A DNA stretch of 64,000 nucleotides from Candidatus Aenigmatarchaeota archaeon (GCA_016195275.1 JACPZZ010000017.1:21581-85580); one strand, 5' to 3'. Shown: positions 2,401 to 56,733, counted from the first letter of the stretch. The notes: a model not told the origin generated them from the letters alone. Translations and numbers: made by a program.

Positions 2401-3462
2401 TCAGTTTCTTTTTACCCGTTTGAACCCGGATATCTCGACTATTTTCAATTTAAATTTCTTATCCAATTTATCGAGAACCAAGTTCATGCCCAGCGAATCC
2501 GAAGACATGTGGCCTGCCGCAACAACGTTGATATTGTGCGATTTCGCCTCTTCGTATTGGTCCTTTGACATGTGCATAGCGACGATAGTATTGATTCCGG
2601 ATTCGGCCATGACCTTCATTCTTGACTTATCCAATTCGGTGCCTCCGGTCATGTCAAATGTTATTTTACCGCATTCGTTTTCCGGGCTGCCTGTAAAAAT
2701 CGTAGGGCCCATTCCATGGGACGCGGCCCACTGGTATTCAGGTATTTTGTAAAGTATGTCGACCAGGTTCTTGATTGTCCTAGGTTTTTCCTTTTCCAAG
2801 AGTTTTTGCAAAAACATGTGTACATGGTTGTCTGCAACGGTGTGCATTGACATGAACGGAATGCCAAGCAGGCGCGCAGCGTCTATGGCGCGCGTATGGT
2901 TAAAAGGGTGCAAACCCCTTCTCACTTCGTCAACACGCGGCCGCACAACGGCTTCGGCCTGGGAAATGGGAACGCCTGCCTTATGAAGTATCCTTATCTG
3001 CATGTCCATTACCTGGTGCAACGCTGCCAGCGCGCGGCCTTCCGGGTGATGGGTTATTATGGCGTCAATTTTCGTTCCTTTCTGCTTCAGGCGGTCGACT
3101 AAAAGCATTTCCTGGCTTTCTATGTCTATACCGACTGCGACCGCTTCGATGTTTTTAGCGTCTTCACCGTTCAGGATAAGGCTGTCTGCAAAAGGGTTTT
3201 GCAGCCTTTCCCTGTCAAAATACTCTTTCTGGTAGCCTTTTAATTCACTGTAGCGTTCCTTTGCTTCCACAAGCAGCCTTTTTATCTCTTCTTCGCCCCG
3301 GGGATCCTCTTTTACCCCTTCCTTTATCGAGAATTCGTAAATTTCTTTCAGCGAAGGCATGAAATCACTTAATAATATGTAAATTTGTGTATAAATCTTC
3401 CGCGTATCGCCAGTCATAGACTGGCGGTATTGCCTTGACAACTCTTTGCCATAAAAACCCAA
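2401..3462 (-). CDS. Nif3-family (DUF34) dinuclear metal centre protein with N-terminal extension
   Basis: 353 aa; AIITHHP motif mid-protein and C-terminal VVAAGHMSSDSLGMN resembling the Nif3 AGHYxTExxG motif. Confidence 0.5.
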   Translation of the reverse strand: MGFYGKELSRQYRQSMTGDTRKIYTQIYILLSDFMPSLKEIYEFSIKEGVKEDPRGEEEIKRLLVEAKERYSELKGYQKEYFDRERLQNPFADSLILNGEDAKNIEAVAVGIDIESQEMLLVDRLKQKGTKIDAIITHHPEGRALAALHQVMDMQIRILHKAGVPISQAEAVVRPRVDEVRRGLHPFNHTRAIDAARLLGIPFMSMHTVADNHVHMFLQKLLEKEKPRTIKNLVDILYKIPEYQWAASHGMGPTIFTGSPENECGKITFDMTGGTELDKSRMKVMAESGINTIVAMHMSKDQYEEAKSHNINVVAAGHMSSDSLGMNLVLDKLDKKFKLKIVEISGFKRVKRN

Positions 3463-6511: not shown

Positions 6512-6928
6512 ATGGAAAAAATCAACACCCCCACTGTCGAGGATTACCTTGAAACTGTCTACAAGCTGACCAGGTCCAAGGGTTATGCCAAGGTCGTTGA
6601 CATATCGGAACGCCTCAATGTACGGCCCCCAACAGTAACGAGTATGATACAAAAGCTCGACAAAAAAGGTTTCATAAAATACGAGAAATACCGTGAAATA
6701 TCACTGACCGAAGCCGGGGAAAAGGTGGCTAAACAGGTCTCTGACACGCATTCAAAGATAATGAAATTCCTGACTATGATAGGTGTGGACGAGAAAACGG
6801 CCTACGCGGACACCGAAGGGATAGAGCATCACGTCCACCCGTCCACAATAAGGAAGATCGACAGCCTGGTTTTGTTCGCGGAAAAAAACCCGAAATGGGT
6901 AAAAAGACTGAAAAGGTTCACAAAATAG
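6512..6928 (+). CDS. DtxR/MntR-family metal-dependent transcriptional regulator
   Basis: 138 aa; N-terminal TVEDYLETVYKL...ISERLNVRPPTVTSMIQKLDKKGFI matches DtxR HTH; divergent from the metal transporter/oxidase operon. Confidence 0.8.
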   Translation: MEKINTPTVEDYLETVYKLTRSKGYAKVVDISERLNVRPPTVTSMIQKLDKKGFIKYEKYREISLTEAGEKVAKQVSDTHSKIMKFLTMIGVDEKTAYADTEGIEHHVHPSTIRKIDSLVLFAEKNPKWVKRLKRFTK

Positions 6929-8672: not shown

Positions 8673-9215
8673 TTACTTAACCCAGCCTTTCCACTTCACC
8701 GAGCAGCCCACAGGCGTAGTTTCCGTTGTTGCAATCTCCTTGTTGGAAAGTATAGCATCAAGCGATTCCCTTAGGTATTTTCTTTTTGCTGCATTAGCGT
8801 TTTCCCAGTTGTCATCTATCGCGCCGACGTACCTTAACTTTCTGGAAGCATCGAAAACAAAAACATGCGGTGTAACCTTCGCCCCATAAACTCTTGCAAC
8901 GTCCTGAGATTCGTCCCTCAGGTATGGGAAATCAAATCTTTTCTCCTTTGCGCGTATTTTCATGTTTTCAAAGCTGTCTTCCGTGTATTTGGAGTCTTCA
9001 TTCGAATTAATCGCAACAACCTGCACGCCTTTCGCTGCGTAATCTTTTTGCACAGCCATTATTCTACCCTGATACGCCTTTGCATAAGGGCAATGATTGC
9101 ATGTGAAGATAACAACCAGTATTTTTTTGTCTGCAAATTCGCTGGTGGAATGTATTTTGTCATCTACGCCTTTCAGGCCAAATTCTGCAATTGAATCACC
9201 TATTTTCAACGGCAT
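8673..9215 (-). CDS. thioredoxin-fold thiol-disulfide oxidoreductase (redoxin/TlpA-like)
   Basis: CNHCPYAK CxxC motif in a redoxin-like context; start moved to the internal Met (MPLKIG) because the ORF-track start at 9263 would overlap the tRNA-Tyr 3' end. Confidence 0.7.
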   Translation of the reverse strand: MPLKIGDSIAEFGLKGVDDKIHSTSEFADKKILVVIFTCNHCPYAKAYQGRIMAVQKDYAAKGVQVVAINSNEDSKYTEDSFENMKIRAKEKRFDFPYLRDESQDVARVYGAKVTPHVFVFDASRKLRYVGAIDDNWENANAAKRKYLRESLDAILSNKEIATTETTPVGCSVKWKGWVK

Positions 9216-9241: not shown

Positions 9242-9550
9242 TCCCCCGGGGGCGAGTTTCCAAACGTTTTCTTTTGCCTTAAGGCTTTTCTTTTTCAAAA
9301 GAAAAGGCTTATTTGAACGCCCAACACTCCGGTTTCTGAGCAACGAAAACCGTAAGGTTTCGACGGAAAGCCGAAGCTTTCCGTGCACAGAAAACTAATG
9401 TGTTTTCTGTGTCGTGCATGGAAAATCAACGATTTTCTATGCAATAGCCAAATCTTGATGCAATAGCAGACCGACATATGCATTGCATATGTCAGCTTAT
9501 TACGGCACCAAACTACAGCCGGATACTCTACCGAGTTGAGCTACCGGGGG
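9242..9550 (-). tRNA. tRNA-Tyr(GUA) with two introns (about 179 nt at 37/38 and 56 nt at 59/60)
   Basis: Hand-folded: acceptor CCCCCGG/CCGGGGG with C1:G72 (archaeal Tyr identity), D-arm GCTC-AACTCGGTA-GAGT, anticodon stem TCCGG/CCGGA with loop CTGTAG|intron|A giving anticodon GTA, variable GTGTT, T-stem GGGCG/CGCCC, T-loop TTCAAA|intron|T, discriminator A. Mature length 74 nt. Confidence 0.7.
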
Positions 9551-9610
9551 TTAAACTAAATTCCTATTTACCCGATTACCTTATTAAGTTAATTTTTACC
9601 GGATATTATC

Positions 9611-10243
9611 ATGAATCTGGAATCCTTAAAAATTTTTTATGGTTCAAAAAAGGACGAGATTCACTCGCGCCTTGCGGAATTCTCGGAAAACGGCAAAAAC
9701 GATGAGAAAATTTTCCTCGAGCTTTGTTTTTGCCTGTGTACGCCCCGTTCTTCGGCAATAAAATGCGATCGCATCGTAAGACAGCTCGCAAGCAACAGGC
9801 TCCTTTTCACCGCCAACGCAGACCAGATAAAAAGGTACATGGACGAAATAAGTTTCCCGGATGAAAAATCCCGTTACATAGAAGAGGCCAGAAAAGTGTT
9901 TCTCGAAAGAAAAGTCGATTTCAGGGAATTCTTCAAGAGATTCCTGTCGCCAGCCGGGGCGCGGGAATGGTTTCTGAGAAACGTAAACGGCCTGGGCCGC
10001 AAGGAGGCTTCACATTTCCTGAGGAACATAGGAATGGGCAAAGAGTTCGCAATACTGGACGTCCATATACTGAAAAACCTGAAAGAATTCGGCGTTATAG
10101 AAGAAATTCCTGCCAGGCTCGACGACAAAAAATACCTGGAGATAGAGGCTAAAATGAAAAAATTCTCGGATAGTGCGGGCATACCGATGGACGAGCTTGA
10201 TTTGCTGTTATGGTCAAAGGAAACAGGCTTTATTTTCAAATAA
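9611..10243 (+). CDS. ogg: N-glycosylase/DNA lyase, HhH-GPD superfamily (archaeal Ogg2-type 8-oxoguanine glycosylase)
   Basis: 210 aa; HhH-GPD hairpin GLGRKEASHFLRNIG with catalytic Lys and downstream Asp (AILDVH); size and layout as archaeal Ogg2. Confidence 0.65.
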   Translation: MNLESLKIFYGSKKDEIHSRLAEFSENGKNDEKIFLELCFCLCTPRSSAIKCDRIVRQLASNRLLFTANADQIKRYMDEISFPDEKSRYIEEARKVFLERKVDFREFFKRFLSPAGAREWFLRNVNGLGRKEASHFLRNIGMGKEFAILDVHILKNLKEFGVIEEIPARLDDKKYLEIEAKMKKFSDSAGIPMDELDLLLWSKETGFIFK

Positions 10244-10284
10244 TCATACCGGCATTTGCCGACCAGCGTTTGATTGTTAAAACT

Positions 10285-11733
10285 TCACTCGTCGCGCTTT
10301 ACCCTTGCAACCTCGCCCAATTCGGCATAATTCGAGTCTACTCTCATGGAATTTTCGTTGGCGTCCCTGTATCTCAGGTAAGCCTTTGGCAGCGAAACAG
10401 TTCCCAAAACACCCATAACAGGGGACAATTTATAGGTTATTATCCTCTCTTCCTGGGGCTTGACATCGCCGATCTTCCATATCATTTCCGTGCCCACTGC
10501 AGTCTTCTTTACCAGTGGTTTTAAGGTGTCGTGGTGCGGCAACAGCTTCATCACTGGTGGTATCAGATCGCGTACAACGGCCGCATTCAACGTATTGCGT
10601 GAAGAGTTCTTGACAATTACCGTAACAGCAAATTCCCTTCCTATCTGGGCAGGACCGGAATGAAGCACGCGCTTGTATATCCTGGGCTTCTGGAGTTGTA
10701 TCAGTACAACAACGCTTCCGACAACCAGGAATGCAAGAATAACATAGGCGGGTGTGTAGGAAATCCTGTAAACGAAACTCGCAGTCTCTCCCGGGGTTAA
10801 CTCATCAACGGCCCAGAAATAAGAAACGTCTCCGCCGGACGAGGTCGTATAATTCGGTTTCGTGTCCGGCGATGCCAACCAGGAAACAACGCTGGAAAGG
10901 TCTTCGCGCACGGTTATGTTCCTTCCAACCAAATTACCTTCGTTGGACAATTTTATCGTGACAGTCTTGCCTGAAGATGTTTTTTGCTCGTCCTTTGTCT
11001 GCAATACGTTATAGTAAGTGTTTACAACAAATGAAGTCTGGTTCTGCGATACTTGCTCTCCGCTTTGTGACCTTAATCTGGCAGAAGCCTTGTAATCGCC
11101 GGCCATAGCATGCTTGTCTAACGCAATCGGTTTTTGTACTGTCTTTTCTTCAAGTCCTCCCACTCCCACAGGAACTGTTAATCCGGTCTGCCTGTTTAAC
11201 GGGTCTGTTATTGTTATTTCAAGCGAAAAGCCTTCCAGATCTGTAACAGCCAGGTTCGCGACCTTTATCACCGCGTTTATGTCCGTGCCCGGATTATACG
11301 CAGAATTATCGAGTTTAAAATCCCTGATTACAAGGGGGTATTTGAAATAAACCGTGAAAAAGAATTCCGCAGTGTCGAAAATGGTAGCGTCGTTAGCCGA
11401 GTCTGCGCGCACCACATAACGGTAAACCGACGGGTTTATCCCCACAGGTGGATTAACGGAAAGGTAAACAGTCTCCTCTCCGCCGGCCGGTATGACAACG
11501 CTGCTTTTTTCCAGTGTAACCCAGGAAGAGAATGTTCCCGAATATGACAATAGAAACTGGTCCGCCTTGTTTTCCATATTTTTTATTATAACGGCGTATT
11601 TGGTTGCGGATCCGCTGAAACCTTCGGCCTGTGACGGCGTAACGCTGACATCAACGCCTGCTGCCGAGACAAAAGATGATATGACAACCAGGGAAACAAA
11701 AACTGACAAAAACAGGCTTTTGCGCGCAAACAC
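10285..11733 (-). CDS. secreted/membrane-anchored surface protein, hypothetical
   Basis: 482 aa; N-terminal signal-like segment (LFLSVFVSLVVISSFVSAAG), long Ser/Thr/Val-rich beta-type ectodomain, single TM (AYVILAFLVVGSVVVLI), cytoplasmic tail. Confidence 0.55.
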   Translation of the reverse strand: MFARKSLFLSVFVSLVVISSFVSAAGVDVSVTPSQAEGFSGSATKYAVIIKNMENKADQFLLSYSGTFSSWVTLEKSSVVIPAGGEETVYLSVNPPVGINPSVYRYVVRADSANDATIFDTAEFFFTVYFKYPLVIRDFKLDNSAYNPGTDINAVIKVANLAVTDLEGFSLEITITDPLNRQTGLTVPVGVGGLEEKTVQKPIALDKHAMAGDYKASARLRSQSGEQVSQNQTSFVVNTYYNVLQTKDEQKTSSGKTVTIKLSNEGNLVGRNITVREDLSSVVSWLASPDTKPNYTTSSGGDVSYFWAVDELTPGETASFVYRISYTPAYVILAFLVVGSVVVLIQLQKPRIYKRVLHSGPAQIGREFAVTVIVKNSSRNTLNAAVVRDLIPPVMKLLPHHDTLKPLVKKTAVGTEMIWKIGDVKPQEERIITYKLSPVMGVLGTVSLPKAYLRYRDANENSMRVDSNYAELGEVARVKRDE

Positions 11734-11776
11734 AGAAACACCTATGTTTTCTTGGCTTTTTTGCCATATAAGTTTT

Positions 11777-12769
11777 CTAACCCAGCATCAGGGAAGCCAC
11801 GACAAAATAGATCACTATGGTAAGCATATCCGAAACAACCGTGGCTATCGGACCGCTGCCGATTGCAGGATCGACGCCCATCCTATAGAACCAGTAGACA
11901 ACCGCCAAAGACGAAAACGCGGAAAACATAAAGGAAACGATCATCGAGCTTGCGATCACAAACCCTATGAAAGGCTGGTTCCACAAAATGGAAACCGCAC
12001 CCAAGGTCAGCACTCCGCAAATCAGGCTTATTACCGTGGAAACGAACATCTGCCTTGAAAGGTAATTAAAAAATCTGAGATTTTTCCCAAGTATGGCGAT
12101 ATCACGCACCATGAGCGTCTGCAGTTGTGTTCCGATTGCATCGCTCATATACACCACGGTGGGCAGGAAAAAAGCAAGTATTAAGTGCCTTTCCACGGTT
12201 TTTTCAAGCGCGTTGATAAAAATAGCCGTAATCATCATCGAAACAAGACCGACAAGGAGCCACGGCAACCGGCTTTCAATGCTTTTGTAATACGGAACTT
12301 CAAGCGTGTTTTCAAACTCAAGGTGGGATTTATGAATACCTGCAAAATGCAATATGTCTTCCTGCAAAGACCTGTTGAGTATTGCCATTATCTTATGATT
12401 CGGGACAACGCCCAAGAACCTGCCTTTGCTTACAACAGGCACGTCCTTGATCTTGTGCTTTAAGGCGAGGTCCGAAACCTTTTCCTGGTCTGTTTCCGGC
12501 AATACGGTTATCAGGCTTGTTTTCATCAGCCTGTCGACCCTGGTCTTCCTGGGCGTGGAAAAAAGGTATTTCACTGAAAACACGCCGACGAGTTTTCCCC
12601 TTTTATCGACCACATAAATGTAATCAACCGTTTCCAGGTTTTTGCTTTCAGCGGCAAGCCTTTGGACAACACCTCCGACAGTCTCGCCCAAGCGTGCAAT
12701 GGGAACATTTGTTACCATCCTTCTTCCGGCAGAGTTGTGTGAATATCGCTCAACAGCAGAAGGCTGCAT
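11777..12769 (-). CDS. mgtE: magnesium transporter MgtE (CBS pair plus MgtE membrane domain)
   Basis: 330 aa; CBS-domain region (VVSKGRFLGVV) followed by a 5-TM MgtE-type domain. Confidence 0.8.
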   Translation of the reverse strand: MQPSAVERYSHNSAGRRMVTNVPIARLGETVGGVVQRLAAESKNLETVDYIYVVDKRGKLVGVFSVKYLFSTPRKTRVDRLMKTSLITVLPETDQEKVSDLALKHKIKDVPVVSKGRFLGVVPNHKIMAILNRSLQEDILHFAGIHKSHLEFENTLEVPYYKSIESRLPWLLVGLVSMMITAIFINALEKTVERHLILAFFLPTVVYMSDAIGTQLQTLMVRDIAILGKNLRFFNYLSRQMFVSTVISLICGVLTLGAVSILWNQPFIGFVIASSMIVSFMFSAFSSLAVVYWFYRMGVDPAIGSGPIATVVSDMLTIVIYFVVASLMLG

Positions 12770-12798
12770 GTGAATAATTTGATTTTCGGGATAAAAAA

Positions 12799-12931
12799 GG
12801 TGGGGTTAGGGTGATTTGAACACCCATATGAAGCTCTTTCTAAACCTTTCTTTTTCCCTTGAGGCTTTTTCTTTGGAAAGAAAAAGGCTCACCCAAAGCT
12901 CCTATGCTAAACCAGGTTACATCATAACCCC
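12799..12931 (-). tRNA. tRNA-Pro(UGG) with 56-nt canonical-position intron
   Basis: Hand-folded: acceptor GGGGTTA/TAACCCC, D-stem ATGT/GCAT, anticodon stem GGAGC/GCTTC, loop TTTGGG|intron|A giving anticodon TGG, variable ATAT, T-arm GGGTG-TTCAAAT-CACCC, discriminator A then CC. Confidence 0.7.
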
Positions 12932-15727: not shown

Positions 15728-15748
15728 TTCTTGAATAAGCCTCAGGCG
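15728..15748. repeat. attL: 21-bp direct repeat agcctcaggcgagaattgaac (copy of tRNA-Thr 3' end)
   Basis: Identical 21-mer occurs at 56631-56651, where it forms the T-loop/acceptor 3' end of tRNA-Thr. Confidence 0.75.
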
Positions 15749-15850
15749 AGAATTGAACAATTGTCTACCTTACGTGCGTACTTGCTTGAGCAAGTCGCGT
15801 AGGAGGCGAGGTAGAGTCATCATTCCTATTGGCGCTGTCGGCTCATAAGT

Positions 15851-16597
15851 TTGATGCTCAAACCCTTGCATCCACAAAGCGGCAATCGTCCAAGACCGGA
15901 AGCGACGCCTACCAGCCAGGTAGGAGATGACGGTTCGAATCCGCCTTGCCGCATTTCTCTGCGTCTCTGTTCTGACAGGCAGGACTTCGAGGCGTTCCGC
16001 TGGATCATCGACACGTACCACACTTACAAGCCTTGGAAGCCTTCTCCCGGCAGGAAGATCTGCTGGCTTATTGAACGCGAAGGCGAGACCATCGGCTCCA
16101 TCGCAGTCCATAGCGCCGTGCTCACAATCAAGCCGAGAGAAGACTTCATTGGATGGGACCAGAGACAAAAGCTTGTCAACTTGAACAAAGTAGCCAACAA
16201 CTATCGTTTTGCACTCATTGAGCGGGGCGTTGGCTCTCGTGTGCTATCCGAGCTGGAACGTGAGGCCAAACGGGAATGGAAACGGAAATACGGCGATCCG
16301 CTCGTCCTGTTGGAAACTTTTGTCCAGCCGCCCTATGAAGGCACATCGTACAAAGCCGCGAACTGGACCTACATCGGTATGACCAAGGGCTTTGCTGTGA
16401 GGCGCGCCCCCGTCTCATTGTGGAAACGCGCGGGGGGCGAGAGAAAGAAGTTGTGGGAGTCCGATCCACATGCTGCGGCGAAACTGTACGCGGGCTGGAA
16501 TGGCGGCCAGCTTGTCAAAGTCACTCCGACTCCGAAGAAGCACATCTTCGCGCGCCCGCTGCATCGGTATTGGAGACGAGAGTTGCTGCGCGTCTAA
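15851..16597 (+). CDS. hypothetical GNAT-like protein (possibly DUF4338-like), likely 5'-truncated or with mis-assigned start
   Basis: 248-aa ORF; ERGVGSRVLSELEREA resembles GNAT motif A (RxxGxG); the annotated N-terminus overlaps a tRNA-like sequence (15879-15953) and has no in-frame alternative start until far downstream. Confidence 0.4.
   Translation: MMLKPLHPQSGNRPRPEATPTSQVGDDGSNPPCRISLRLCSDRQDFEAFRWIIDTYHTYKPWKPSPGRKICWLIEREGETIGSIAVHSAVLTIKPREDFIGWDQRQKLVNLNKVANNYRFALIERGVGSRVLSELEREAKREWKRKYGDPLVLLETFVQPPYEGTSYKAANWTYIGMTKGFAVRRAPVSLWKRAGGERKKLWESDPHAAAKLYAGWNGGQLVKVTPTPKKHIFARPLHRYWRRELLRV
15879..15953 (+). other. degenerate tRNA-like sequence (Gly-GCC-like) just inside attL
   Basis: 7-bp perfect acceptor stem GCGGCAA/TTGCCGC, anticodon hairpin CCTAC-CAGCCAG-GTAGG, T-arm GACGG-TTCGAAT-CCGCC, discriminator A; mismatches in the D and T stems and A33 suggest a pseudo-tRNA or element-borne tRNA. 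Confidence 0.45.
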
Positions 16598-55382: not shown

Positions 55383-56582
55383 TTAAGCCTTCAACAGTTT
55401 CGTCTTCAGAATCTCTTCTACGCGCACCTCTATCATCTTGTCGATCATTTCGGGTGTCAGGAGTTTTAGCACCTGCTGCTCTCTGTCCTCCAACTCAAAC
55501 AGACCCTTCACCGAGATCGCTCTGCTGCACTGGACACAAAAATCCGCACTTAGCGAGTTTTCAGTTTTGCAGAACGTGCAAACCGTAGTGCTAACGACCC
55601 CGAGGGCACGCTTCTCTCGCTGTTCGATTGAGTGCTGTTTCAATACATACTCCTCAACTTGCTTCTCTGCCAGGTGTTCATAGAATCTGAATGCCTTGCT
55701 TTCTACCGAGTGCCCTACGAGTTTCTTTATCATTATCTCGTTCCATCCAGCTTCGAGCAGATGTGTGATCCTGCTGTGCCGTAGAAGATAGGAGTACACT
55801 CGCTTCTCCATACCTAACTTTTTGGCCGTCCTCTTGAGAGTGACGTTGAATCCCTCCGGTTGTAGAAACTGCTTGGTTAGGTAGCTCACATAGCTTGACG
55901 GAAAGAGAGGCGCATTCTGATCGCGCCTCAATGGGTGGACGTTGAGCCAAGCCCTCAAATAGCGATCAGAGTCCATTGCGAAGATCGTCCTCGTGAAAGT
56001 CTTGCTCTCCCGCAAGAAAATCCTTGTGTACCCTTCTGTGGATTTGAGACTTCCAACAGTAAGGGTGAGCAACTCCGATGGTCTTGCTGCGGTTTCATAC
56101 GCAAGCGCAAAAAGACATTTGTACATCGGACTGTGGACCGCGTTAACAAGTTGTTCCACTTCATCCTTGGTTAGCAGGTCGTTGTAGGTGATATCGAATT
56201 TCCTCGGCCCGTTTCTTTTCGTCTTGATCCAACGATATTTCTCAGGATTGAAGCTGTCACCCAGAACAAATTTCAGGAGTCGCTTCACCGCAATCTTGTA
56301 GTCATTCATTGTCCATGCCGCAAGACCTCGCGCGGTGATTTGCGCGAGTGCCGCCTCAATATCTCGGTTGTCGAGGTCGGCGTAGTCTTTCTTCATGGCA
56401 ATGGTGAGGTCGCGTAGGAGGATCAGATACTTCTTGATGCGGCCAAGAGAGATGCCTTCGGCGCGGAGCCTCTGTGCAAAGGCTGCCAGGGTCTCTGCGT
56501 TGTTGGGCGAGATTTCCGGCATGACGCGAATCTGGCACAGCACACGCTCGTAATCCTTGTTGCTCCTATAGAACGAATCCAT
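55383..56582 (-). CDS. int: tyrosine recombinase / integrase with C-terminal zinc ribbon
   Basis: 399 aa; N-terminal SAM-like core-binding domain, catalytic region with LRHSRITHLL (HxxR) and downstream Tyr; C-terminal CTFCKTEN...CVQC; adjacent to tRNA-Thr/attR. Confidence 0.85.
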   Translation of the reverse strand: MDSFYRSNKDYERVLCQIRVMPEISPNNAETLAAFAQRLRAEGISLGRIKKYLILLRDLTIAMKKDYADLDNRDIEAALAQITARGLAAWTMNDYKIAVKRLLKFVLGDSFNPEKYRWIKTKRNGPRKFDITYNDLLTKDEVEQLVNAVHSPMYKCLFALAYETAARPSELLTLTVGSLKSTEGYTRIFLRESKTFTRTIFAMDSDRYLRAWLNVHPLRRDQNAPLFPSSYVSYLTKQFLQPEGFNVTLKRTAKKLGMEKRVYSYLLRHSRITHLLEAGWNEIMIKKLVGHSVESKAFRFYEHLAEKQVEEYVLKQHSIEQREKRALGVVSTTVCTFCKTENSLSADFCVQCSRAISVKGLFELEDREQQVLKLLTPEMIDKMIEVRVEEILKTKLLKA

Positions 56583-56630
56583 GCAATTACATGGGTCAGT
56601 CTGCTAATAAAAGATATACACTTGTTCAAA

Positions 56631-56651
56631 GCCTCAGGCGAGAATTGAACT
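56631..56651. repeat. attR: 21-bp direct repeat agcctcaggcgagaattgaac within the tRNA-Thr 3' end
   Basis: Identical to 15728-15748. Confidence 0.75.
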
Positions 56652-56733
56652 CGCGACCTTTACCTTACCAAGGTTTAGCGACAAACTTCGCTTGGAAATT
56701 CGTTAACGCTCTACCAACTGAGCTACTGAGGCG
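56631..56733 (-). tRNA. tRNA-Thr(GGU) with about 30-nt non-canonical intron in the 5' strand of the anticodon stem
   Basis: Hand-folded: acceptor GCCTCAG/CTGAGGC, D-arm GCTC-AGTTGGTA-GAGC, exon junction TTA|...|CC restoring anticodon stem TTACC/GGTAA, loop TTGGTAA (anticodon GGT), variable AGGTC, T-arm GCGAG-TTCAATT-CTCGC, discriminator U. Intron position 28/29 or 29/30, ambiguous by one A. Confidence 0.65.

Follow-up and report, generated by a model that had tools for sequence, protein, structure and literature searches.

How homologous introns come to occupy different positions in unrelated tRNA genes of one genome is the question raised by a 64,000-nucleotide stretch of DNA from a Candidatus Aenigmatarchaeota archaeon (GCA_016195275.1, JACPZZ010000017.1:21581-85580), which was analysed at its full 64-kb length and is referred to as the window. 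The genes for tRNA-Tyr(GUA) and tRNA-Pro(UGG) found there each contain an insert of 56 nt, in the T loop of the former and the anticodon loop of the latter; these and the other genes relevant here all lie on the minus strand. Contigs and genomes compared with the window carry the locus labels L007 to L061. The inserts are very probably homologous spliced introns of functional tRNA-Pro and tRNA-Tyr, and the observations as a whole are best explained, with moderate confidence, by bulge-helix-bulge (BHB)-type introns derived from a mobile, structured module family of DPANN archaea.

Homology, proposed splice geometry and age of the two inserts

Both 56-nt sequences quoted in the initial annotation were recovered exactly on the minus strand, at 37/38 of tRNA-Pro and 59/60 of tRNA-Tyr (Table 1). 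Their identity, previously put at about 75-80%, was found to be 75-77% by formal alignment (42/56 positions ungapped; 44 matches in 57 columns gapped), with a score of 29 against -9.1 ± 4.4 (maximum 9) for 2000 composition-preserving shuffles. The tRNA folds are sound and the segments are not intergenic, as the cloverleaves are restored once the inserts are removed and the syntenic tRNA-Pro of L060, which is intron-less, carries the anticodon loop TTTGGGA predicted from joining exon 1 to exon 2 (G37-A38). The tRNA-Tyr gene was missed by both ARAGORN and Rfam; its four cloverleaf helices could be enforced with standard pairs throughout in a constrained fold. The unconstrained minimum free energy (MFE) fold of pre-tRNA-Pro contains the acceptor, D and T arms, with the anticodon stem extending into the intron. 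The earlier claim that homologous introns reside in unrelated tRNAs of a single genome, one at the canonical and one at a non-canonical position, was borne out, and the inserts must be removed because both tRNA genes are functional.

Table 1. Coordinates of tRNA genes, introns and module copies in the window, with the basis of each assignment
Feature	Coordinates	Strand	Basis or details
tRNA-Tyr(GUA) gene, two introns	9550..9242	minus	read by eye, with constrained folding
tRNA-Tyr exons	9550..9513, 9333..9312, 9255..9242	minus	
tRNA-Tyr canonical 179-nt intron, 37/38	9512..9334	minus	overlooked in the initial annotation
tRNA-Tyr T-loop 56-nt intron, 59/60 (A59↓U60)	9311..9256	minus	five-orthologue alignment
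Module copy 2, subtype TA/U4CU4/U	9311..9265	minus	covariance model R1, 68.5 bits; UAAGCC-UUUUCUUUU-GA-AAAAGAAAA-GCCUUA-AGG-CAAAAGAAAA
tRNA-Pro(UGG) gene	12931..12799	minus	ARAGORN with introns allowed
tRNA-Pro exon 1	12931..12892	minus	
tRNA-Pro exon 2	12835..12801	minus	followed by CC
tRNA-Pro 56-nt intron, 37/38	12891..12836	minus	ARAGORN -i, intron after position 37
Module copy 1, subtype TG/U5CU3/C	12891..12845	minus	covariance model R1, 69.4 bits (training member); UGAGCC-UUUUUCUUU-CC-AAAGAAAAA-GCCUCA-AGG-GAAAAAGAAA
tRNA-Thr(GGU) gene	56732..56630	minus	overlooked in the initial annotation
tRNA-Thr 30-nt intron in the anticodon stem (28/29-29/30)	~56703..56674	minus	

At 37/38 as at 59/60, the site falls between nucleotides 6 and 7 of a loop of 7 nt carried by a 5-bp stem and, since both loops also start with UU, the two sites are structurally equivalent, so that one intron design suits both. 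Read 5' to 3', the tRNA-Pro intron consists of the module described below, GGUUU (the 3' strand of the inner helix, h'), AGAA and AG, and the T-loop intron of the module, CGUUU (again the 3' strand of h'), GGAA and AC; a T at both ends of the latter means that its boundary may slide by one base to 60/61. In the proposed precursor the outer helix would be the 5-bp host stem (anticodon stem or T stem). The central helix would be formed by loop bases 1-3 (UUU, U32-U34, in Pro; UUC, U54-C56, in Tyr) with the GAA close to the intron 3' end, the pairs being U-A, U-A and U-G in Pro and U-A, U-A and C-G in Tyr, and would be closed by a purine-purine mismatch (G35.A in Pro, A57.G in Tyr). Loop bases 5-6 with the first intron U would make up the 5' bulge, the two terminal intron bases with loop base 7 the 3' bulge (AG↓A38; AC↓U60), and intron RAGCC would pair with GGUUU or CGUUU in the inner helix. 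Both bulges would then be cut by the splicing endonuclease and the exons joined by a ligase.

This layout of helices, bulges and mismatch is kept, as judged by eye, in the orthologues, where the central helix pairs UUCA with GGAA or UGAA and UUUG with AGAA or AAGA. Of the BHB motif to be looked for at both junctions, two 3-nt bulges and their flanking helices can be drawn for either intron, but this is not the MFE fold, and a strict 3-4-3 motif scan gave none at the correct place in either of them. The intron nature of both inserts is well supported; they are probably protein-spliced introns of BHB type, with a near-canonical rather than a strict motif and with predicted endonuclease cleavage. 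No group I or group II ribozyme core was identified in the inserts, which measure 56 nt and match no Rfam intron family at the gathering or the E-value threshold. C/D boxes were absent from the 56-nt introns on inspection, the sole snoRNA-like Rfam match (14.3 bits, E = 9.1) falling in the 179-nt intron of tRNA-Tyr.

Both tRNA-Tyr introns were found at the same two positions in all four relatives examined (L009, L055, L056 and L059); the T-loop intron is thus present in 5/5 genomes, the window included, and is therefore old. For tRNA-Pro, the window and L007 agree at every position from 8 to 65, all 56 intron bases among them, and differ in the acceptor stem by three pairs changed in a compensatory manner, which points to tRNA-type selection on the exons. 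In the adjacent MgtE gene of the same two genomes, third positions at conserved fourfold-type codons are just 46% identical. The same tRNA-Pro site holds a 55-nt version in L056 and a 98-nt version in L061, both diverged; with the intron present in the window, L007, L056 and L061 and absent from L060, gain and loss are not distinguished without a tree. Both introns appear to have been resident at their sites since before the divergence of the sampled relatives. As for the transposition proposed initially, homology, differing positions, splice-type geometry and intron turnover within the clade speak for it, but not in the form of a recent or private event between tRNA-Pro and tRNA-Tyr, because the T-loop intron occurs in all four relatives and the Pro intron is 56/56 identical in L007.

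The shared module and its distribution

The first ~47 nt of each 56-nt intron constitute the module, in which a hairpin containing a C.C mismatch precedes a purine tract, with the consensus U-R-A-G-C-C, U(a)CU(b), a loop of 2-6 nt, A(b)GA(a), G-C-C-U-Y-A, A-G-G and G-A(a)-G-A(b). Identity between the two window modules is 77% and, as classified from their sequences, they represent two subtypes (TG/U5CU3/C and TA/U4CU4/U) of a pan-DPANN family. Across 20 distinct aligned copies, pairing in the 14-pair hairpin amounts to 99.3% and the C.C mismatch is conserved; at pair 2-33, 14 copies have A-U and 6 have G-C, and two upper-stem pairs switch jointly between C-G and U-A. The R at position 2, the interior of the tract and the Y that fills the N slot of the pattern were free to vary in the search. 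A covariance model run with filters off found only the two known copies in the window (next match 10.6 bits) and revealed many diverged copies in other loci, in which the lower stem is kept by compensation (URAG/CUYA, CAAC/GUUG, GCA/UGC, GCAC/GUGC and AAAC/GUUU). No Rfam family corresponding to the module was found at the gathering threshold for the window, or at the E-value threshold for the tRNA-Tyr region and an L026 spacer.

In the tRNA-Tyr orthologues the lower stems are CAAA/UUUG, GAAA/UUUC and CAAAA/UUUUG, and the 3'-terminal h' strand co-varies with them; since this strand changes in step, the intron 5' end has two alternative conserved partners. The corresponding folds are predicted to be similar in energy, at -16.1 and -12.6 kcal/mol for the excised introns as a long rod and -14.3 kcal/mol for the isolated module hairpin.

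The 3' purine tract mirrors the purine strand of the hairpin and so reads as a parallel complement to the pyrimidine strand. Of the distinct copies, 26 have tracts of unequal length, in eight (a,b) classes; in these the first A-run equals a in 26/26 and the full (a,b) mirror is present in 22, the Watson-Crick order (b,a) occurring in 0/26; a copy with two C residues, U3CU3CU2, has the tail A3GA3GA2. Plain Watson-Crick pairing of the tail with the pyrimidine strand, although it is the predicted fold of the excised window introns, was rejected as the cause of the register on this count of 0/26. An intramolecular triplex with A.A-U and G.G-C triples is classically recognised by purine tracts in mirror repeat beside a complementary pyrimidine strand. 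Triplexes of this type are poorly documented for RNA, and sterically the short linker that follows the lower stem is awkward for one; a triple helix formed by the purine tail is regarded as doubtful. Alternatively, the mirror may be a constraint arising from two competing Watson-Crick folds.

In elements for nuclear expression (ENEs; MALAT1, PAN), an A strand is clamped between two U strands by U.A-U triples. The module resembles them in having a hairpin followed by a purine-rich 3' tract, in a register that tracks the hairpin, and in its occurrence at coding-region 3' ends. Unlike an ENE, it has one U-rich and two A-rich strands and would need A.A-U and G.G-C triples; there is one pyrimidine strand per module, and the tail mirrors the purine strand. 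Longer versions of the module were observed in L009, L035, L038 and L039, in which a palindromic linker CCUUAAGG pairs with a downstream CCUUAAGG-like copy and loops out the purine tail; in the TG/C subtype the linker, CCUCAAGG, lacks this palindromy.

Scanning a single genome of each species with an exact pattern returned 31 loci; roughly half, from bacterial MAGs, had nothing beyond the searched words in common and were discarded as chance matches. Extended similarity of ~45 nt is shared by 15 matches in 14 loci, 13 of which belong to archaeal metagenome-assembled genomes (MAGs) labelled Aenigmatarchaeota, Nanoarchaeota/Nanoarchaeia, Woesearchaeota, Micrarchaeota or unclassified archaeon, and a metagenome scan yielded 16 further loci. 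The fourteenth locus, L022 (QOAM01000118.1, binned as Thermodesulfatator sp.), contains an archaeal-type tRNA-Thr(GGU) with the module as a strict BHB intron at 27/28; it is probably a DPANN contig that was wrongly binned with a bacterial MAG. The spread of the module family across at least three DPANN phyla and across several contexts is held to be highly likely.

Within tRNA genes the module occupies five or more positions, those in the other loci having been read by eye from the cloverleaf in each sequence. A strict 3-4-3 motif with the 5' cut exactly before the first U of the module is present in L008, L013, L017, L030, L035, L040 and L048, whereas the strict motif is offset by +1 in L022 and by -1 in L032, where the intron is at 37/38. 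The intron site is ~53/54 in L008, L013 and L040, ~25/26 in L048, and 59/60 in two tRNA-Ser genes (L017 and L030). The L035 module forms an intron of an archaeal 16S rRNA gene (194 bits with Rfam), situated in the 5' portion of that gene between bases 6 and 7 of a 7-nt hairpin loop with a central helix GUAA/UUAC and bulges UG↓U and AA↓G. A consensus module lies in the 3' trailer of a tRNA in L038, directly after the discriminator base. The same L038 tRNA (minus strand, ~420-620) was seen to carry a module variant with the linker CCCUCGGG in its anticodon region, and the trailer module is followed by two partial tandem repeats of the module 3' half.

Copies also adjoin protein genes, and in 10 of 11 such cases the first three bases of the module (TAA or TGA) are the in-frame stop codon of the upstream open reading frame (ORF), which ranges from 57 to 509 codons. 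By sequence, these upstream genes encode S8, S7, S19, a NusA-like protein before S12, SecY, RpoN, a zinc-ribbon ORF before L19e, deoxyhypusine synthase and a membrane protein. The orientation of the module is that of the host transcript in all tRNA, rRNA and gene-end copies.

Several further arrangements were noted. Ribosomal-protein operons of Aenigmatarchaeota (L026 2648-2850 and 4297-4500; L018; L044; L046) share a larger spacer layout comprising the stop codon in the module, ATATTAA (TATA-like), GGTGG, a hairpin, and a small CCUUUUCUU/AAGAAAAGG hairpin before the next start codon. The L046 copy at 8872 has a ~50-nt insertion in the module loop, and the copy at L018 3012-3059 looks decayed. 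In L014 (~6700-6860, minus strand) and, equivalently, L045 (~2720-2880, minus strand), the module lies between two ~42-nt duplicates, ~90% identical, of the 5' end of the S11 gene (ribosome-binding region and first 9 codons), the only copy with a long flanking duplication. In L036 (299-420) and L047 (30-220), tandem units of ~85 nt contain the outer parts of the module (TAAGCCTTTTCTG ... AAAAAGCCTTAAGGGAAAAG) around a different core and alternate with a conserved GAGTTCGGACAGCGCAATCTGTTATCCGAAGCTCAG segment; the L036 array begins at the rpoN stop codon.

Turnover, probable mobility and possible function

The similarity between copies does not follow position. The window Pro intron is 57-61% identical to its positional orthologues in L056 and L061, but its module is 96% identical to a T-arm intron in the unrelated metagenome contig L040 and 87-88% identical to spacer copies in Aenigmatarchaeota and Nanoarchaeia. 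Likewise, for the window Tyr module identity to the orthologues in L055, L056 and L059 is 66-74%, compared with 94% to L038 and L042 and 89% to a Micrarchaeota copy. With the reservation that similarity was the means of ascertaining the cross-taxon copies, this non-clock-like pattern agrees with repeated replacement or invasion by a family whose consensus is stable; strong selection that depends on context would be compatible with it as well. On balance, the family probably is or was mobile and has not been only vertically conserved. As envisaged, it would be a mobile cassette that spreads between RNA genes of high expression (those of tRNA and rRNA, and ribosomal-protein operons), its structure would be maintained by selection, and it is proposed to survive in tRNA and rRNA because it can be spliced there.

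A number of observations weigh against this interpretation. At the junctions, the central helix of both window introns consists of three Watson-Crick or wobble pairs plus a purine-purine mismatch, and the MFE fold of pre-tRNA-Pro has a 3x3 internal loop, the imposed BHB register giving -36.4 kcal/mol against -46.7 kcal/mol; a splicing endonuclease gene was not among the 40 window ORFs in a Pfam scan of the window. The protein-gene copies have no convincing BHB, a strict search having given candidates at chance level only. No target-site duplications and no associated enzyme were found with the module copies, and viral contigs gave 0 matches to the long pattern and 5 to the short pattern, all of them chance (12.8-14.4 bits). 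The cross-phylum copies were ascertained with a pattern derived from the window, which favours near-identical copies, the 56/56 identity of the Pro intron with L007 argues for function over selfish drift, and one mechanism may not serve all contexts.

The best-surviving alternative, which is nonetheless considered the less likely account and is entertained only tentatively, treats the module as a functional RNA element (protein-binding, processing, stability, or a two-state translation element) for which introns and spacers are mere expression sites, the likeness of the window introns reflecting shared function. It would account for the complete identity of the Pro intron between genomes whose synonymous-type sites are saturated, for hairpin covariation across phyla, for a purine-tail mirror rule that holds over eight length classes, for an orientation that is always that of the host gene together with the use of TAA/TGA as in-frame stop in 10/11 protein-gene copies, and for two near-isoenergetic folds kept through compensatory change in the orthologues. 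An essential element would not be expected, however, to have positional orthologues that are 57-74% identical, gain insertions or lose the intron altogether, nor to have spacer copies that look decayed, such as that in L018 (3012-3059); the module also lacks an Rfam family, and no partner protein or target is known.

Rickettsia palindromic elements and prokaryotic MITEs (miniature inverted-repeat transposable elements) represent short, structured, multi-copy sequences of reduced genomes that are tolerated inside genes, including RNA genes. A DNA-level element of this type, seen only where it is tolerated, that is at spliceable tRNA and rRNA positions and at gene ends where its own TAA or TGA serves as the stop codon, is judged unlikely. 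Intronic modules start exactly at the 5' splice site, which random DNA insertion would not yield, and the strict orientation with the host transcript fits a constraint at the RNA level. When the flanks of ~35 copies were inspected, terminal inverted repeats were absent apart from the internal hairpin and target-site duplications were not a regular feature; all that was seen was a frequent single T at both intron borders and the one ~42-nt duplication in L014; no associated transposase and no viral-contig copies were found. Further, removal would be by RNA splicing, as predicted here, and not by in-frame retention as in the Rickettsia elements. What such an element would explain are the high copy number per genome across varied contexts (8 kb of L014 hold several copies, and one Nanoarchaeia MAG has them in three loci), the varying presence and absence at orthologous sites, the near-identical copies across phyla, the partial tandem repetition of pieces of the module in L038 and L059, and the duplication flanking the L014 module. 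An IS200/IS605-like idea, with URAG as external target and CUYA as internal guide, was rejected, as in the tRNAs the URA is inside the intron and not in the exon.

Chance resemblance or convergence of low-complexity U- and A-rich hairpins, whether as unrelated introns or as intergenic segments of wrongly called tRNAs, may draw on the low sequence complexity of both inserts and on the escape of tRNA-Tyr from ARAGORN and Rfam, but is extremely improbable given an alignment score 8.7 standard deviations above the shuffles, non-repetitive blocks (URAGCC and GCCUYAAGG) common to both inserts with a covarying R-Y pair, tRNA-Tyr exons kept with the same intron positions in four further genomes, and a tRNA-Pro orthologue without the intron.

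Host genome, known systems and significance

Near-identical tRNA genes were found by a DNA pattern scan of species-representative genomes in the Aenigmatarchaeota-labelled MAGs L007 and L009. The flanking proteins are syntenic with those of relatives, MgtE being 86% identical to L007, 78% to L060, 75% to L056 and 74% to L061, and a DUF11 protein 70% identical to L009; the nearest MgtE homologues carry the NCBI name Aenigmarchaeota. As judged from these comparisons, the host is a DPANN archaeon of the Aenigmatarchaeota, a tiny symbiont; the window also has matches in the Logan assemblies of SRR12113409 and SRR12113410. The initial description of the genome as AT-rich with bacterial-like genes was imprecise: the G+C content of the entire window is 50%, which is a mixture of host flanks at 45-46% and an integrated element of ~41 kb, single 4-kb bins of which reach 50-59%.

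In the 179-nt tRNA-Tyr intron five near-perfect hairpins follow one upon another, several with the form xGAAAA...UUUUCx, and its junction has a 3' bulge AAA and a central helix CUG/CAG with a U.U mismatch. At this position the intron measures 47 nt in L009 and, by inspection, ~45 nt in L056, ~100 nt in L059 and ~160 nt in L055, and GAAA...UUUC hairpin units thus appear to come and go inside it. Similar hairpins were observed upstream of tRNA-Tyr in L009. A window-wide repeat family was ruled out, the hairpins being confined, within the window, to that intron.

The tRNA-Thr(GGU) gene is named tRNA-Gly(tcc) with a 6-nt intron by ARAGORN, and its Rfam tRNA match (52.9 bits) has a 41-nt insertion inside the anticodon arm; the spliced form folds as a cloverleaf. 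Its intron lacks the module, and the junctions form a clean 3-4-3 BHB (UU↓A, AGCG/CGCU, AA↓A) at a non-canonical site, from which it follows that the genome uses non-canonical protein-spliced introns. The 3' end of this gene coincides with the right copy of a 22-nt direct repeat, AAGCCTCAGGCGAGAATTGAAC, which at ~15737-15758 and 56629-56650 bounds the ~41-kb element, and a tyrosine integrase (55383-56582) lies beside it. The element carries genes for a serine recombinase, two STAND/NACHT NTPases, a DDE transposase and a DNA methylase, an AbiEii-like gene and two Cdc6/Orc1-like genes. In L056 purD, tRNA-Thr, tRNA-Pro and MgtE are contiguous, with 240 nt between the two tRNAs; ~43.7 kb have therefore been inserted in the window lineage. 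The element is a mobile one integrated into a DPANN genome, and a tRNA that contains an intron is its site of attachment. An intron-less tRNA-Gly(GCC) (15879-15953, plus strand; Rfam 35.6 bits), just inside its left end, may be borne by the element.

The closest described phenomenon is that of the Thermoproteales, for which similar introns at different positions are attributed to intron transposition (Fujishima et al. 2010, as summarised in PMC4090602). The initial annotation was right to draw this parallel, but the host here belongs to DPANN and not to TACK, and disrupted tRNA genes have already been reported in DPANN (PMC5829648). In both cases the tRNA bodies are unrelated and the mechanism of spread is unknown, as far as the summary in PMC4090602 describes the Thermoproteales families. 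In the sequences examined here, by contrast, the shared part is a defined 47-nt structured module found across at least three phyla, whose other settings are an intron of 16S rRNA, the 3' trailer of a tRNA and fusion to protein-gene stop codons; moreover, the window pair is old, both introns being kept in relatives. In DPANN, splicing endonucleases of broad specificity are described (epsilon2 of ARMAN-2 and alpha4 with an L3 loop; PMC3239211, PMC5829648), those with the L3 loop being associated with increased tRNA gene disruption (PMC5829648). The present genes resemble the disrupted DPANN tRNAs of these sources in having multiple and non-canonical introns, and their relaxed BHB would be expected to be cleavable (PMC3239211, PMC5829648). 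The available portions of the two papers cover enzyme types and intron positions, and neither a conserved intron module nor extra-intronic copies are mentioned in them. Keyword searching of an incomplete library returned no description of the module, only DPANN tRNA disruption and Thermoproteales transposition.

Functional tRNA introns offer a further comparison and would be precedents for the reading of the module as a functional RNA element. The archaeal tRNA-Trp intron holds a C/D-box guide. The eukaryotic tRNA-Tyr intron is required for m1A58 modification (PMC12168002). What the present introns would have in common with these is purifying selection on an intron that acts before or after excision; unlike them, the introns described here have no C/D boxes and no guide complementarity to the host tRNA was identified, and the same module sits in many different hosts.

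It may conceivably be that the module is an undescribed pan-DPANN RNA cassette moving among the highest-expressed RNA genes, with an architecture that reflects either a triplex or a two-state switch between pre- and post-splicing folds, although this is put forward as a speculative possibility. For intron gain in archaeal tRNA genes, the sole well-described case of transposition is that of the Thermoproteales. The present case adds a spreading unit of defined sequence and structure, whose first base is exactly the start of the intron. Three insertion sites (37/38, 59/60 and the 16S hairpin loop) are alike in lying between bases 6 and 7 of a 7-nt loop, and filled, empty and diverged alleles exist among close relatives. 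With a defined module, a shared site geometry and these allele states, the question of intron gain becomes testable. Standard tools missed tRNA-Tyr and misnamed tRNA-Thr, and modules of this kind help to explain "missing" tRNAs in DPANN bins, for the retrieval of which the module covariance model could serve. The fusion of the module to stop codons in ribosomal-protein operons of minimal genomes suggests either that the module is a mobile RNA cassette of a new kind or that the DPANN translation apparatus has in it a new signal for regulation or processing.

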